From a virus (taxonomy: Duplodnaviria > Heunggongvirae > Uroviricota > Caudoviricetes): a stretch of 39,436 bases of DNA. The DNA is taken from IMG/VR virus record IMGVR_UViG_2537561944_000032. One strand, 5' to 3'. Below, in pieces: positions 23,412 through 31,685 of the stretch. The position numbers and the translations under genes were made by a program. The notes below the pieces were generated by a model, which was given only the letters and a program-made list of their open reading frames with translations, was not told the DNA's origin and made no database searches. Positions within the stretch are counted from its first letter, which is position 1. Each line of letters starts with the position of its first letter.

Positions 23412-24212
23412 TTAACCGCGCTTTGCCTTCTGCGTCGCGGTGGTTTTTCGTGTTGCAGGCTTCCGCGTTGTCTTTTTATTTTTGCTGCTTTCGTCCTGCG
23501 CCTGCTGTGCGCTGGCGTCTTCTGGTTCGGCTGCGGAATCGGCTTTTTTCAGGGCGCGGGAAAGGGTTGCAATCTCGCGTTTCACACCTGCGTTCGGGTT
23601 CAGGTGCATCGCTTCGCGCAGCAGCTTCAGTGATGAGGCCATGTTGTCTGCATCGGTCAGGCCACGACGGGCAAAGGCACACGCCTTGCATAATTTGGCG
23701 CGCACTTCGTCCGGAATGTCCTGGTTGGCGACAATTTCCCAAAGTGTGTCCAGTGGTTCGATAAAGGCGGATAAATCCGCGTCGGCATCCGTCCCAGCCT
23801 GCGTCAGTACCGGGTTGCAGATTTCTTCGGTCAGTACCGTGGCAGCAGTACGGCCAAAGTTATCCGGCATGATGAGGTTGTGACGGACCACATATGCACC
23901 AATACGCAGCGCCAGCGGAAGATCGCCGCAGTCAATCGCCCACACCATCAGCGTGGCAATTACTTCGTCCTGTTGCCCGCCGTCAGCCTCCAGCGTTCCC
24001 TCAATCCAGCCGGAAAAGTCCGGCAACAACTCTTTTTTGATGGCGGCTTTCGCGCTTCTGGCCTGTATGGCCTTTAGCCTGGCCTGTGCCAGACGCAGAC
24101 GATACAGCACTTCTTCATGCGCGGTACACGCGGCGTGGTCCACACCTTCATTCGCCCGGCCTGCGCGCTGTGCCATCACGTTCTGCCAGTGTTGTTGTGC
24201 AGGAGTAATCAT
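23412..24212 (-). CDS. M: terminase small (endonuclease) subunit gpM-like
   Basis: 266-aa ORF between N and L with basic Lys/Arg-rich C-terminal tail; P2 order O-N-M-L. Confidence 0.8.
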   Translation of the reverse strand: MITPAQQHWQNVMAQRAGRANEGVDHAACTAHEEVLYRLRLAQARLKAIQARSAKAAIKKELLPDFSGWIEGTLEADGGQQDEVIATLMVWAIDCGDLPLALRIGAYVVRHNLIMPDNFGRTAATVLTEEICNPVLTQAGTDADADLSAFIEPLDTLWEIVANQDIPDEVRAKLCKACAFARRGLTDADNMASSLKLLREAMHLNPNAGVKREIATLSRALKKADSAAEPEDASAQQAQDESSKNKKTTRKPATRKTTATQKAKRG

Positions 24213-26324: not shown

Positions 26325-28075
26325 ATGATTCAGGACGCTTTTGTGCGCCAGCGTGCGCGGCAACTTTACTGGCAGGGTTATCCGCCCGCAGAAATATCAC
26401 GTCTGATGGGAATAAACCCGAACACGATTTATGCGTGGAAAAAACGCGACCAGTGGGATGAAACGCCACCCGTGCAGCGTGTCACGCAGTCCATCGATGC
26501 GCGCCTCATCCAGCTTACTGAAAAACAGAATAAAACAGGCGGTGACTTTAAGGAAATAGACCTGCTGACCCGGCAGCTTAAAAAACTGCATGATGGCCAG
26601 CCGGATGCGACGGTCACAGGAAAGAAAGGCCGGGCGAAAAAACTCAAAAATCATTTCACGCCGGAACAGATTGCCGCACTGCGGGAAAAAATCATCAGCA
26701 GGCTGGAGTGGCATCAGCGGGGCTGGTTTGACTCCCTGACCCTTTGCAGGGAAGCCGGGATACGTAACAGGATGATCCTGAAATCCCGACAGATTGGGGC
26801 GACCTGGTATTTTGCACAGGAAGCTCTGCTGATGGCGCTGCGTGACGATGTGGCGCAACCTTACCAGCGTAACCAGATTTTTTTGCTGCGTCGCGTCGTC
26901 AGGCGTTCCAGTTTAAAAGCATTATTCAGAAGGCCGCGGCTGAAGTTGATGTGGAGCTGAAAGGGGGCGATAAAATCATCCTCTCCAACGGCGCAGAGCT
27001 GCATTTTCTCGGCACTTCTGCTGCGTCGGCACAGTCCTATACGGGCAATTTTTATTTTGATGAATTTTTCTGGGTCAGTCGCTTTGCTGAACTGCGCAAG
27101 GTGGCTGGCGCTATGGCAACCCTCAGCGGACTGCGGCGCACCTACTTCTCCACGCCATCCACCGAAACGCACGAGGCATACGCCTACTGGAACGGCGACC
27201 GCTGGAACGAGAAAAAGGCCACGCATAAACGCCAGCGTTTTTCTGTGGACTGGAAAACGCTGCATAACGGGCTTATCTGCCCTGACCGGACGTGGCGGCA
27301 AATTGTCACGCTGGAAGATGTGGTCAATCACGGCTGGAAACACACCGATATCGACGAAATTCGTGATGAAAACACCGAAGACGAGTTCCTCAATCTCTAT
27401 ATGTGTGAGTTTGTCCGCGAAGGGGAATCGGCATTTAACCTGAATATCCTGATTGGCTGCGGTGTTGACGGATACGACGACTGGAAAGACTGGAAACCTT
27501 TTGCTCCCCGCCCGATGGGGAATCGTCCGGTATGGATTGGGTATGACGCAAACGGCAGTAGTGGCAACGGCGACAGCGGCGCTGTGTCCGTGGTGGTTCC
27601 TCCGGCTGTTCCTGGTGGCCGTTTTCGAACGGTGGAGACGCGACGCGTTCAGGGGCTGGAGTTTGAAGAACAGGCCAGAGTCATTGAAGAGTTCACGTAT
27701 CGCTACAACGTGGAACACATCGGCATTGATGTGACGGGCGGGAACGGGGAGGCTGTTTATCAGATAGTGAAACGGTTTTTCCCTGCTGCTATTCCGTACA
27801 CCTTCACGCTGTCATCAAAACGGTCGCTGGTACTGAAAATGCTGCAAATAATGCGTGCCGGGCGGTGGGAATACGATCGCGCCGAACGCGAGCTGGTCGC
27901 GGCCTTTAACGCCGTGCGTAAGGTGAAAACACCGGGCGGCTTTATCACTTACGAAACGGACCGCGCGAGGGGGATCAGCCACGGCGACCTTGCGTGGGCA
28001 ACCATGCTTGCTGTCATTAACGAACCGATTGGCGGCGAAGGAGAAAACGAGCGTTTCACGGTTATGGAGTTCTGA
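26325..28075 (+). pseudogene. P: terminase large (ATPase) subunit gpP-like, split into two frames at a T7 homopolymer (frameshifted)
   Basis: ORF 26325..26960 matches the gpP N-terminus (ARQLYWQG...LKSRQIGATWYFA...NQIFL), then runs out of frame; ORF 26951..28075 in another frame continues the gpP alignment (VELKGG...RTYFSTPST...IGYD...FRTVE). Frame break is at the T-run 26878-26884. Confidence 0.85.
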
Positions 28076-28100
28076 TGAGCAGAAAAATAAAAAAGTGCGC

Positions 28101-29120
28101 ATGAGTTCACGCATTGATCTCGCTGATGCGCTCAGGAAAGAATCATCGCTCAGTGCATTCACATTTGATGGTCCTTATCGCCTGACCGGGCATGACCTGC
28201 TGGACAATATGTACTGTGCTGATAACGGACGGTGGTATGAAACCCCGGTGGACTGGTACGGTCTGGCAAGAGCAGCCCGGCAAACGTCCTGGCATCAGTC
28301 TGCGCTTTACTTTAAGCGCAATGTATTACTCGGTTGCTACATCCCGCACCCGCTGCTTTCCCGGCAGGATTTCTCGGCGCTGGCGCTGGACTGGTTTGTG
28401 TTCGGTAACGCATTCCTTGAGCTTAGAAGCAATATGCTCGGCGAACCGCTTAAATTACGGCACGCCCTGGCGAAATACATGCGACGCGGAAGCGATCTTG
28501 AATCATGGTGGTATGTGCAGGATGGCAAGGACGCGTTCCAGTTTCGCCCTGGCAAAGTGTGCCACCTGATGAATCCGGATATTAACCAGGAAATCTACGG
28601 CATGCCGGAATATCTTGGCGCATTACTCTCGGCCAGCCTTTCTCATTCGGCGGACATGTTCAGAAAACTGTACTACGACAACGGATCCCACGCCGGGTGC
28701 ATCATCTACATCGGTGCAGCGCAGGTAAACCGCGAAAGCATGGACTCCCTGAAAGAAACGTTACAGGGCGCGCGTGGTGGTGGTGCGTTTAAAAACGTAC
28801 TCATCCATGCGCCCAACGGGGGCAAAGAAGGTGTGCAAATTTTGCCGTTCCAGCAGATCACTGCAAAGGATGAGTTCATGAATGTTAAGGCGGCATCCCG
28901 TGATGATGTGCTGGCTGCGCACCGCGTTCCGCCGCAACTGATGGGGGCGATGCCGGGCGAAAAAAGTGCGTTTGGTGATGTGGAGAAGGCCGCGCGGGTT
29001 TACGCAATTAACGAGCTGATGCCCGTTATGGAGGCCATGAAGCACATCAATGACTGGCTTGGCGAAGAGGTGATCCGCTTTAACCCTTACGCACTGCTAG
29101 ATACCCAGCCCACATCCTGA
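28101..29120 (+). CDS. Q: portal (capsid vertex) protein gpQ-like
   Basis: 339 aa from ATG 28101 (ORF opens at 27990, overlapping the end of P); downstream of P on the same strand, divergent from O as in P2. Confidence 0.85.
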   Translation: MSSRIDLADALRKESSLSAFTFDGPYRLTGHDLLDNMYCADNGRWYETPVDWYGLARAARQTSWHQSALYFKRNVLLGCYIPHPLLSRQDFSALALDWFVFGNAFLELRSNMLGEPLKLRHALAKYMRRGSDLESWWYVQDGKDAFQFRPGKVCHLMNPDINQEIYGMPEYLGALLSASLSHSADMFRKLYYDNGSHAGCIIYIGAAQVNRESMDSLKETLQGARGGGAFKNVLIHAPNGGKEGVQILPFQQITAKDEFMNVKAASRDDVLAAHRVPPQLMGAMPGEKSAFGDVEKAARVYAINELMPVMEAMKHINDWLGEEVIRFNPYALLDTQPTS

Positions 29121-29146
29121 CGCGCTTCGCTTGTCTGCTGCTTCGC

Positions 29147-29171
29147 CGGGGCATAAAAAATTTATGCCCCG
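29147..29171. terminator. perfect palindromic hairpin (bidirectional terminator candidate) downstream of Q
   Basis: ggggcataaa-aaa-tttatgcccc; 10-bp perfect arms with A/T loop. Confidence 0.6.
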
Positions 29172-29543
29172 ACTCTCCAGCTCCTGTATCAATCAGATAA
29201 TTTCACGACGCTTTTCTGCTTATTGTCATCATCGGCGGTCAGACTCTTACGCAATCCCACCGCGTTGACTGCATGTTCTCGCCGCCTCAGTGCGATTTTG
29301 ACGGCCTTATCTGCCACCCATCAAATCAAAAGCCCTCACGTCTTTTTCACGCTCAGCGTGAGAAATACAGCCATTCTGTTGTGTCGCTGCGACATCGTTC
29401 AGGGGATGCTATTTACCCCCTGAAACGCGGGCTGTTCCCCCGTCACCTGCGCGCAGAAAAAGCGCGTTTTTTTGTGCACGCACGGATCCTTGACGGATCC
29501 AGCCGCCATGCGGGCCGGAAGGGTAAAAAGTCGTTCAAAAAAA

Positions 29544-29570
29544 TTGTGCAAACTTGTGCACTATTGTGCA
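29544..29570. repeat. three tandem TTGTGCA iterons at exact 10-bp phasing
   Basis: aaaTTGTGCAaacTTGTGCActaTTGTGCA; lies in the non-coding region between Q and the Ea22-like gene, where the P2 cos site would be expected. Confidence 0.6.
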
Positions 29571-29609
29571 GCAGGGCGATGCGCGATTATCGCCCTGGTT
29601 TGAGGGGGA

Positions 29610-30200
29610 TCAGGTGTTATTTTTATCTGTCGTCAGTGGGCTAAACCATCCACGATTTACATCGCAGGACTGATGCGTTCTGTCCTCGTGTTTCTCCTGC
29701 CACAATGCTTTTCCGCCAGCCTTTATGATGGCTCTTTCAACATCCCGCTCGTATCGCAAGGGCTGAAATACGTCATTAATGAAATATTCGCTTATGTCCG
29801 GAAGCGATACTGCAAAATTATTTGTTTGTTGCGCCGTCCTGCTATGCAGCAAAGCGGCATACTTTAATGCGTCCTGTGCTTTCTGGAATTTAAGTGCATA
29901 GTCAGTGGCGATTTTTTCCAGTTCAGCGATTCGGTTGTCTTTGGTTTCCAGCCAATCAAGTAGCGCCAATACTTCAGGATCCCCGACATCCAACACTGTT
30001 ACGCGTGATTTTTCATAATGTTCGTCGGCAAGAGTTCGGCCAATTTTGAAATCTCCATCATCACCATAACCGGAGCAGGCATAAACAACCTGTGCTCCAG
30101 ATATTCGCTGAATTGACATTTCCTCGCCGCAAATAGGGCATTTCGGTACTGGCACAGGTGAATAACGTTCACGTAATGCCTGATAGTTGATTTCGCTCAT
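29610..30200 (-). CDS. hypothetical protein, Ead/Ea22-like N-terminus with CxxC...C zinc-ribbon-like motif (196 aa)
   Basis: Starts MSEINYQALRERYS...KCPICGEEMSIQRISGAQVVYACSG; AAGGAG RBS; last gene of the parM-parR-containing unit. Confidence 0.55.
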   Translation of the reverse strand: MSEINYQALRERYSPVPVPKCPICGEEMSIQRISGAQVVYACSGYGDDGDFKIGRTLADEHYEKSRVTVLDVGDPEVLALLDWLETKDNRIAELEKIATDYALKFQKAQDALKYAALLHSRTAQQTNNFAVSLPDISEYFINDVFQPLRYERDVERAIIKAGGKALWQEKHEDRTHQSCDVNRGWFSPLTTDKNNT

Positions 30201-30263
30201 TAAGTCGTTCTCCTTGTTTATGTTCTGAGGTGGAGAGCAGGGCGAACTCGCCCTGATGTTTTG

Positions 30264-30575
30264 TTATTCAGGAAATAACGCCCGGATATTTCCGGCCATC
30301 TGACTGGTTATCTGTGCGGTTGATACTGGCTGTGATGCGGGGCGTTCTGTCCTGGTTTGTGTCACTGATAACGCTTCATCACCAGCCCATGCAGCCAGTC
30401 GATAAGCCTCTGCCGGATTCATTTTCAGAAGTGCCAGCCCGGCCAGAAAAGCCACGCGTTGGCCGCTTTTGCGGGCTTCTGGTGTAAGGCTGTCCAGCCA
30501 GGCGCATGCTTCTCCTTCGTTCTTGACGGCGGTGGGCTTCAGATAGAAACTTATCCGTCTGGTTGGAGTCGTCAT
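30264..30575 (-). CDS. ParR/StbB-like centromere-binding adaptor (ribbon-helix-helix type)
   Basis: 103 aa from ATG 30575 (AAGGAG RBS, 2 nt after parM-like stop). RRISFYLKP...LDSLTPEARKSGQRVAFLAGLALL and C-terminal IRALFPE resemble plasmid R1 ParR as I recall it. Confidence 0.65.
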   Translation of the reverse strand: MTTPTRRISFYLKPTAVKNEGEACAWLDSLTPEARKSGQRVAFLAGLALLKMNPAEAYRLAAWAGDEALSVTQTRTERPASQPVSTAQITSQMAGNIRALFPE

Positions 30576-30579
30576 TGGT

Positions 30580-31539
30580 TTACTCCTTGTCCATTGCGTA
30601 CAGCCCATTAACCAGAGCAAACTGTGGCACCCCGTCCGCGATGAAAGTCGCATTAACTCCGCAGGCTTCGCGGATAGCGGGTGCCACAATCTCCGCCCCT
30701 CCACCGACAACCATCACCCGCCCGTAACCCGAAAAACCCGCCAGCGCGCGGATCACGCGTTGTTTCAGTGTTTCTTCCTTTTCACGAATAACCGCCATCA
30801 GGCTGGCGTAATGCGCGTCATTGTGGATGTGCTGGCGCAGCCAGGCTTCATCATGGCGATGTTCGATAATGGTATTGGCGATGTGGTGACTGGTGCGCAT
30901 ACCGTTAGTGGCCATCACCGACAGTACGGCATCGGCCATCAGAGAAACGCCCACGTGTGGATCGCAAAACACCTGGCTGATACCTGCCAGTTGCCCCTGA
31001 ACCTTTGCCACATCCAGAGTGGTTCCGCCCAAATCCACAATCAGCAGGGATTCAAACGGACTCATGTCAGCCAGTGCCTTAAAGCCAGCCGGAATGGATT
31101 CAGGCATAACCCGTACGTTACGGATAGTGAATGCTTCGCCGTTCTGGTACTCCACCGGGCGCATGACGTTCGCTTTTTTGCGGTTGATGTTGGCCATGTC
31201 CGGCTGTGCGTTTGTATCGAAATACTCGCTCAGTGGCAGGGTGACAACCACATCCACTTCCTGTGGTGTGATGCCTGATTTGACCAGCGCGTGATGAATG
31301 GCAATTATATTCACATCGCTGTACTGGTATTGCGTGTCGGTCGTCTGGACAAAGCGATCGCTGACCGGATCAAAACCATAGCGCACGCCATCAAGCATGT
31401 AGTTCGCGGGCTGCGTGCCACCGAACGGCGCAGACCATTCCGACTTGAAGCTGTTCGGGCTGATGGCGTTGCGGCGTTCGCCGTTCTCAGTCCATGCCAG
31501 CTTGATGTTGGTGGAGCCGTCGTCGATACAAATTTTCAT
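30580..31539 (-). CDS. ParM/StbA-like actin-family ATPase
   Basis: N-terminus MKICIDDGSTNIKLAW...ISPNSFKSEW...QYSDVNIIAIHHALVKSG closely parallels plasmid R1 ParM (FIDDGSTNIKLQW...ISPNSFKREW...QYSDVNVVAVHHALL) as I recall it; also the adjacent-Gly phosphate-binding loop DLGGTT. Confidence 0.8.
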   Translation of the reverse strand: MKICIDDGSTNIKLAWTENGERRNAISPNSFKSEWSAPFGGTQPANYMLDGVRYGFDPVSDRFVQTTDTQYQYSDVNIIAIHHALVKSGITPQEVDVVVTLPLSEYFDTNAQPDMANINRKKANVMRPVEYQNGEAFTIRNVRVMPESIPAGFKALADMSPFESLLIVDLGGTTLDVAKVQGQLAGISQVFCDPHVGVSLMADAVLSVMATNGMRTSHHIANTIIEHRHDEAWLRQHIHNDAHYASLMAVIREKEETLKQRVIRALAGFSGYGRVMVVGGGAEIVAPAIREACGVNATFIADGVPQFALVNGLYAMDKE

Positions 31540-31574
31540 GTCGCTTTTCCTTGTGTTGATTAATTAATCGGTTA

Positions 31575-31685
31575 CAGGATTTTTAAATCCCGCTTTTGCC
31601 TGTTTTGTGCGCGCTTCATATATCGCGGCACGTTTTTTGCTCATTTACGGGATTTGTGAGTCCCGTTTCTGTCTGTTTTTTGTTT
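31575..31685. repeat. two copies of a 35-40 bp direct repeat containing a short palindrome, spanning the 3' end of gene A and the parM upstream region
   Basis: acaggatttttaaatcccgcttttgcctgttttgtg (31575-31610) versus acgggatttgtgagtcccgtttctgtctgttttttg (31645-31680), about 80% identical. Confidence 0.4.

Follow-up and report, generated by a model that had tools for sequence, protein, structure and literature searches.

What occupies the gap between the portal gene and the nearest cargo gene of a P2-like Escherichia coli prophage, and why should three copies of TTGTGCA stand there exactly 10 bp apart? We examined this question in a stretch of 39,436 nucleotides from a tailed phage (IMG/VR record IMGVR_UViG_2537561944_000032, hereafter the window). 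An earlier note on this DNA had expected the cos site in this gap, had reported that the cohesive-end sequence of P2 was missing, and had considered that the repeats might instead serve the neighboring partition proteins. The gap is indeed non-coding, and measures 489 bp rather than the 490 bp first given (from the portal stop at 29120 to the minus-strand stop at 29610). With a probability of about 0.8 we read this interval as the cos region of a P88-like element from the P2 family, containing a conserved module of ~140–150 bp in which the repeats, from here on called boxes, are proposed to be docking sites for the terminase.

Judged by its closest matches, the element that carries this interval is a P88-like prophage (Xuanwuvirus, Peduoviridae), a very common P2-family type in E. 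coli. The nearest phage records (P88, Chuche, 500465-2 and Shae_phiSM), together with further Xuanwuvirus phages, are 93–96% identical to the window over positions 28900–29570, and a segment of 1130 bp (29121–30250) is 100% identical to positions 2621812–2622941 of E. coli E2865 (NZ_AP018808.1). The region has a match in 1226 of the 5426 complete E. coli genomes, or roughly one in four. The gene order as assigned by Pfam is of the P2 type (gpM, gpP, gpQ, the gap, Ea22-like cargo, ParR, ParM, gpA), and the arrangement around the gap in P88 and E2865 is the same as in the window. The genes that bear on the question are the following.

23412–24212, minus strand: small terminase gene, gpM homologue (Pfam Phage_term_smal, 7e-37)
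26325–28075, plus strand: large terminase gene, gpP homologue (Pfam; residues 1–58 correspond to a Terminase_5/HTH domain)
28074–29120, plus strand: portal gene, homologue of P2 gpQ (Pfam Phage_portal; annotated as portal in P88 and E2865)
29610–30200, minus strand: Ea22-like cargo gene (Pfam Ead_Ea22, 1e-31; same annotation in E2865)
about 30264–30575: ParR-like gene (Pfam Plasmid_stab_B)
30580–31539: ParM gene (Pfam)

The portal protein shares 44–47% identity with its counterparts in P2 and 186 and 69% with that of phiT5282H, and the 3′ end of its gene faces the cos region. A PADLOC search with the Ea22-like, ParR-like and ParM proteins returned no match. Two peculiarities of the records may be mentioned here. 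The large terminase gene of the window carries a 1-nt deletion near 26885 (within 26871–26890; TTTTTTTG-CTGCG as compared to TTTTTTTGTCTGCG in P88, Chuche and E2865), which splits it into open reading frames of 211 and 374 amino acids. E. coli E2865 contains the extra T and an intact gene of 1752 nt. Unless the missing base is a sequencing error, the prophage in the window would be unable to package DNA. In addition, a P88-like prophage with a portal 99% identical to that of the window, the same cos module and the same Ea22-like/ParMR neighbors is found in a contig labelled Vagococcus sp. WN89Y (NZ_JBQPOM010000071.1); its occurrence in this Gram-positive genus is probably due to assembly contamination or mislabeling.

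The gap contains the features listed below, with offsets counted from the first base of the predicted cohesive-end 19-mer.

29147–29171, plus strand: hairpin with perfect 11-bp arms after the portal stop (perfect arms; folding)
29340–29368, no strand assigned: palindrome 2, core tcacgctcagcgtga at 29347–29361, within an imperfect repeat with 14-nt arms (folding)
29429–29447, plus strand: predicted cohesive-end (cleavage) 19-mer, GGGCTGTTCCCCCGTCACC, assigned by positional and architectural homology with the ends of P2, 186 and P4
29449–29474, plus strand: GC hairpin GCGCGCAGAAAAAGCGCGT followed by T7, filling the 19-nt segment after the predicted cleavage site as in P2, 186 and P4
29472–29478, plus strand: proximal box, the fourth copy of TTGTGCA (TGCA core at +46, position 29475)
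29482–29500, no strand assigned: ACGGATCC twice, forming two GATC (Dam) sites
29544–29570, plus strand: three distal TTGTGCA boxes with 10-bp spacing (cores at +118, +128 and +138)
29571–29609, minus strand: start of the variable cargo region, a cos-adjacent hotspot, placed by the homology boundary

The repeats recorded in the earlier note could all be recovered, in part with small corrections. The perfect palindrome after the portal gene has arms of 11 nt (29147–29157 and 29161–29171) rather than 10, and the second palindrome, tcacgctcagcgtga, lies one base off its estimated position. The GGATCC direct repeat is present as ACGGATCC at 29482 and 29493, 11 bp apart, and the three copies of TTGTGCA start at 29544, 29554 and 29564, at exact 10-bp spacing. 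The fourth copy, at 29472, had not been listed. Over the whole window TTGTGCA is not enriched (10 observed, 8.9 expected). Among 5000 dinucleotide-shuffled versions of the gap, none had a phased triple of any 7-mer, and 22 had a perfect palindrome of 10 bp or more. The phased TTGTGCA triple is not a product of chance.

The canonical 19-mer of P2 is absent from the gap, and to this extent the earlier observation stands; what had escaped it is a diverged homologue at 29429–29447. The minus strand of this segment (GGTGACGGGGGAACAGCCC) is identical to the left end of P2 (GGCGAGGCGGGGAAAGCAC) at 13 of 19 positions. This position was obtained by an anchored comparison with P2, 186 and P4. In the orientation of the window, the cos junctions of P2, 186 and P4 all begin with the 19-mer and continue with a segment of 19 nt, TTTTAATGCA, a spacer and finally the (A)TGCA box three times. 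The window follows this layout with GGGCTGTTCCCCCGTCACC, TGCGCGCAGAAAAAGCGCG, TTTTTTTGTGCA, a spacer and three copies of TTGTGCA. The P2 and 186 records annotate these ends as cos, and the termini of P4 were included in the comparison. A diverged 19-mer together with the P2/186/P4 layout bears out the expectation that the cos site of a P2-type phage lies between portal and cargo, and it also agrees with the suggestion that this packaging site may differ from that of P2: it does so in sequence, with the architecture of P2, 186 and P4 kept.

The conserved part of P2-family cos sites is represented in the accessible text of three papers (PMC5694545, PMC3931495 and PMC9594776) by the 55-bp core of Ziermann and Calendar (1990), made up of the GCGCGC flank, the 19-mer, the 19-nt segment and TTTTAATGCA. 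Within the portions of the literature accessible to us, this core is what is described, and neither the distal boxes nor a contact between gpP and cos is mentioned. In the window, the right part of the core is present as TGCGCGC...TTTTTTTGTGCA, and the GCGCGCA flank at –9 to –1 of P2, 186 and P4 is not kept but replaced by CTGAAACGC. The requirement for cos determined by Ziermann and Calendar is reportedly ~125 bp. An unanchored three-way MAFFT alignment with flipped P2 and 186 junctions had placed the P2 19-mer at ~29370–29393; this candidate is contradicted by the anchored comparison and by the cross-genus footprint described below.

The cleavage positions at 29429–29447 are predicted by homology. 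None of the IMG/VR contigs and phage records was found to begin at a predicted end, and the phage and genome records examined contain no cos annotation in this region. Two phage records differ from the window within the predicted 19-mer when aligned to 29426–29440: Chuche has a 7-nt deletion, and P88_4B11 has a 5-nt deletion and a substitution. As a circumstantial hint, these differences may reflect assembly errors at physical DNA ends.

To what extent is this arrangement a property of the family? By way of the portal alignment we fetched 80 P2-like prophage loci from GTDB genomes, 53 of which showed a cos-like 19-mer downstream of the portal. Five of these proved false on inspection and were dropped; the 53 regions of the later counts are those left after this removal plus P2, 186, P4, the window and phiT5282H. 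Loci from Enterobacterales through to Burkholderiales show this cos architecture. TGCR cores peak at +44/46, +50/52, +116/118, +126/128 and +135–139 in a set of 58 family cos regions (GTDB prophages and reference phages), 52 of which have a core at +44 or +46. Boxes paired at 10-bp spacing occur in 45 of 53 regions and triples in 34 of 53, as compared to 0 in 200 shuffles. The array in the window falls into the +46/+118/+128/+138 class, in which the proximal core precedes the first distal core by 72 bp (~7 helical turns). Conservation is weaker for the third box than for the other two. By position, the TTGTGCA triple is this lineage's version of the P2/186/P4 box array, at equal distance from the predicted cutting site.

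Comparison with 11 relatives from other genera, made within the P88/Novemvirus clade, delimits the conserved elements. Against a background identity of ~0.3, peaks appear at 29429–29458 (0.95), 29469–29488 (0.79) and 29539–29568 (0.92). From the portal stop to 29410, both palindromes included, identity to the same 11 relatives stays at ~0.3, and it returns to background after 29570. Enterobacter phage phiT5282H (Novemvirus) aligns with the window only over 29426–29570. In these alignments, only the 19-mer and the boxes are conserved across genera. On the portal side of cos, no more than ~10 bp are conserved in the family, and several lineages carry other DNA inserted there. A GCTSAG motif that palindrome 2 shares with the P2 and 186 left ends has no positional conservation in the family. 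A separate observation concerns the distance between portal and 19-mer in a set of IMG/VR loci (L091–L210), which falls into discrete size classes of ~264, 312 and 935 bp and hints at another small insertion site between portal and cos.

On the opposite side the module ends abruptly. The homology of all P88-like phages stops at 29570/29571, right after box 3, and among the E. coli genome matches listed, most end at 29569–29571. Among 120 IMG/VR contigs with the first two boxes, the exact 19-mer stands 115 bp before the boxes in 100, and the 20 bases after box 3 exist in 57 different forms. This diversity, together with the loss of homology at 29570/29571, identifies box 3 as the last conserved element before the cargo hotspot. 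The distal boxes mark the limit of the conserved cos module on this side, and everything from 29571 on is exchangeable cargo: 161 E. coli genomes share the Ea22-like gene, and in ~1000 others the shared part ends with box 3. A cos-adjacent hotspot for defense and other cargo between gpQ and gpA of P2-like phages has been described by Rousset et al. (2022, PMC9122126), and the title of Dodd and Egan (1996) points to the same cos-adjacent variability in 186-related prophages. The first element beyond the boundary is a hairpin at 29572–29597, 3′ of the Ea22-like gene on the minus strand (–15.6 kcal/mol, z = –3.8).

The remaining repeats in the gap are largely specific to this lineage. A 65-nt segment around the hairpin at 29147–29171 folds with –24 kcal/mol (z = –3.7), and terminators are annotated at the equivalent position in the records of P2 (tQ) and 186 (tW). 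The hairpin has no U-tract and is without conservation outside of E. coli P88-like phages. It probably marks the end of the P–Q transcript, in the position of P2 tQ and 186 tW. Palindrome 2 is restricted to E. coli P88-like phages, with a cross-genus identity (~0.35) at background, and an inverted repeat at 29398–29424 (TTCAGGGG/CCCCTGAA) is lineage-specific as well. The DNA from the portal stop to ~29420, with its probable transcript-end hairpin and palindrome, is lineage-specific throughout. One GATC at ~+56 recurs in relatives, and the second copy of ACGGATCC is specific to E. coli P88-like phages. On this comparative evidence both palindromes and the second GGATCC are lineage-specific and lie outside the conserved packaging module. 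In the window, P2, P4 and 186, the GC hairpin that follows the 19-mer is strong; among the 53 regions it is strong in 16 and weak in 19, and it is not a conserved structural requirement. A search of 29000–29800 against Rfam gave no match with E values up to 1. As a side observation, GATC sites stand at fixed offsets (+56, +100 and +111) in 13–16 of the 53 cos regions, and in arrays of the P2/186 type a GATC immediately precedes the first distal box (GATCATGCR).

How could such a module function? We propose that terminase introduces staggered nicks at the predicted 19-nt site (29429–29447). This site is followed by ~19 nt, then by the T-run with the proximal TGTGCA box (29472–29478), and then by a spacer for which length is fixed and sequence free. 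The distal boxes follow at 29544–29570, one helical turn apart. With 10-bp spacing and a distance of 72 bp (~7 turns) from the proximal box, all four boxes lie on one face of the DNA, where they may form a docking site that positions terminase for the cut at the 19-mer. The boxes would be the functional counterpart, by analogy, of the R sites in lambda cosB. In P2, the left end is the first part of the DNA to enter the head. Should this also apply here, boxes that lie on the right-end side of the cleavage site might serve cleavage or termination instead of holding the end that enters.

Compared with known packaging sites, the site in the window appears to be a diverged P2-family cos that is ordinary in kind. 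Like the cos sites of P2, 186 and P4, it lies immediately downstream of the portal gene and beside the cargo hotspot, and it presents a GC-rich 19-mer, a 19-nt segment, a T-run, a TGCA box and phased boxes at +116 to +142, the last being a cos feature derived in the present analysis and not taken from the literature. The cohesive end differs from that of P2 at 6 of 19 positions. The repeat unit is TTGTGCA, shifted by 2 bp relative to the P2-type (C)ATGCA/G, with a regular 10/10-bp spacing instead of 10 and then 9–13 bp, and the distance from portal to cos is ~310 bp instead of ~170 bp. The cos site of lambda consists of cosQ, cosN and cosB, with sites R3, R2 and R1 for gpNu1, an IHF site (I1) and a 12-nt overhang. 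Both sites combine a nicking site, short repeats on one side of it (here proposed) as terminase sites bound by a helix-turn-helix, and a spacer that fixes the geometry. In contrast, there is no homology in sequence or protein between the two; the predicted overhang has 19 nt where that of lambda has 12, the reader proposed here may belong to the large subunit and not to the small one, and the boxes of the window are located on the side of the right end in mature DNA. A further difference from lambda is that P2 terminase uses circular monomers.

The most likely reader of the boxes would be the N-terminal helix-turn-helix of gpP, with gpM as the alternative. The N-terminus of gpP matches Terminase_5 and also HTH_23, HTH_Tnp_1 and sigma-70 region 4 in Pfam. 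A single-sequence AlphaFold2 model contains helices at residues 2–16, 21–28 and 32–42, with pLDDT values of ~91 over residues 11–40; the third, P32–D42, is the predicted recognition helix. Foldseek matches to the helix-turn-helix of this model were all non-significant (best E = 0.49); those ranked best were mostly DNA-binding helix-turn-helix proteins (Pax paired domain, LuxR/RcsB type, DeoR, IstA transposase and serine recombinase). The record of 186 notes a putative helix-turn-helix in its gpP homologue.

Sequence variation in the third helix follows that of the boxes. The motif NTxY[AS]W is paired with TTGTG boxes in 19 of 19 cases; with xTxHSW, the first box has TGCG in ~16 of 19; and PTVQSW, the motif of P2, 186 and their relatives, is accompanied by TGCA in ~10 of 12. 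The type of 19-mer is uncoupled from the type of box: in loci L020 and L024–L028, TTGTG boxes and the Y helix occur together with a 19-mer of the P2-like type. In a neighbor-joining tree of the gpP ATPase/nuclease portion, the Y/TTGTG group forms one clade; interleaving is confined to the H and Q states and involves two or more switches. Because the Y/TTGTG group is a single clade, the association between helix and box is confounded by common descent and is suggestive rather than proof. These data suggest that the large-terminase helix-turn-helix tracks the box type (Y with TTGTG, H with TGCG, Q with TGCA).

A different reader, such as a host DNA-bending protein (IHF or Fis) or Dam methylation, could in principle act on the box and spacer region in place of terminase. 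IHF acts at site I1 of lambda cosB. A-tracts flank the boxes of the window (29525–29529 and 29537–29543, the latter being an A7 tract directly before the distal boxes), GATC recurs at +56, +100 and +111 in relatives, and a spacer of fixed length and free sequence suggests a bent or looped geometry. We nevertheless regard this explanation as improbable. Inspection by eye of the A-tract and box region revealed no match to WATCAANNNNTTR, with the best candidate one base off in spacing, and the box type follows the phage-encoded helix-turn-helix. TTGTGCA in P88-like phages and CATGCA in P2 and 186 are too different for one host protein; since both box types occur in E. coli phages, a host protein is unlikely to be the sequence-specific reader. 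The region was also inspected by eye for the late-activator dyad TGT-N12-ACA, with a near miss as the only result, and neither this near miss nor that to the IHF consensus is conserved in P2/186-type arrays.

Could the boxes act in transcription instead, as a terminator of minus-strand cargo transcripts or as a promoter or operator of the cargo? A terminator scan did return a candidate on the minus strand (29561–29546), composed of GTGCACAAGTTTGCAC followed by AATTTTTTTG (a GTGCAC..TTGCAC hairpin and T7). The –35 region of the P2 old promoter may coincide in part with the third box of that phage, as estimated from annotated transcript starts. The stem of the candidate terminator comprises only 5 bp, however, and P2/186-type arrays are without the T-run. 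A scan for sigma-70-like promoters over 28900–30400 found none, and the cargo has its own strong hairpin at 29572–29597. Furthermore, the array is kept whatever the content or orientation of the cargo, and we find a transcriptional role still harder to credit.

The partition hypothesis of the earlier note, in which the repeats would be a parC-like centromere bound by ParR so that ParM filaments segregate a plasmid form of the phage, is very improbable given that the homologous array occurs at equal offset from cos in P2, 186 and the satellite P4, that ParM is absent from 20 and present in 37 of 57 box-bearing contigs with at least 5 kb of downstream sequence, and that the distance from boxes to parM ranges from 404 to 4035 bp. 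We know of no partition genes in the gene maps of P2, 186 and P4, and found none in the parts of these records examined. What speaks for this idea is the proximity of the ParM and ParR-like genes (~0.7–1 kb from the boxes) and the fact that short phased direct repeats are typical of centromeres; the parC sites of ParMR (type II) systems likewise have short direct repeats in helical phase near parM and parR. These parC sites, however, consist of two clusters that flank the parMR promoter, whereas the window has three copies plus the single box at 29472, located downstream of parR beyond an unrelated and exchangeable cargo gene. The boxes are not co-inherited with parMR and occur independently of partition genes. 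The usual centromere position upstream of parM is occupied by a repeat pair of its own (31572–31682). This pair consists of two 38-nt direct repeats, 73 bp apart and 79% identical, with internal dyads (CGGGAyT...AAATCCCG); it covers the end of gpA together with sequence upstream of parM, and is a candidate ParR centromere or operator.

Returning to the reading of the interval as a cos region, several consequences follow. Placing cos gives the true ends of the genome for annotation and sets the exact inner edge (29570/29571) of the hotspot of Rousset et al. (2022, PMC9122126). The module is a minimal candidate packaging signal of ~150 bp for the design of cosmids or transducing particles with P88-type helpers. 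The match between box array and terminase helix-turn-helix offers a testable handle on how P2-type terminases choose their DNA and on how helpers mobilize satellites. As a tentative extension, possible but on balance doubtful, packaging specificity in the P2 family might be set by the distal array and read by the gpP helix-turn-helix instead of, or besides, gpM, with at least three groups (Y-TTGTG, H-TGCG and Q-TGCA). If so, these groups would decide which satellites each helper packages, P4-type cos sites would be invisible to P88-like helpers, and two IMG/VR loci, L206 and L209, would be satellites matched to such helpers.

In these two loci, L206 and L209 (IMGVR_UViG_2737471844_000002), the P88-type box array adjoins a P2-family major capsid gene. 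An upstream portal gene is absent from both, and no large terminase was seen among the open reading frames scanned. L206 contains the exact 19-mer as well, and L209 contains genes for the GPO scaffold and the small terminase, an integrase-like open reading frame and a ProQ/FinO gene. Both are possible satellites, equipped with the packaging signal that P88-like helpers use.
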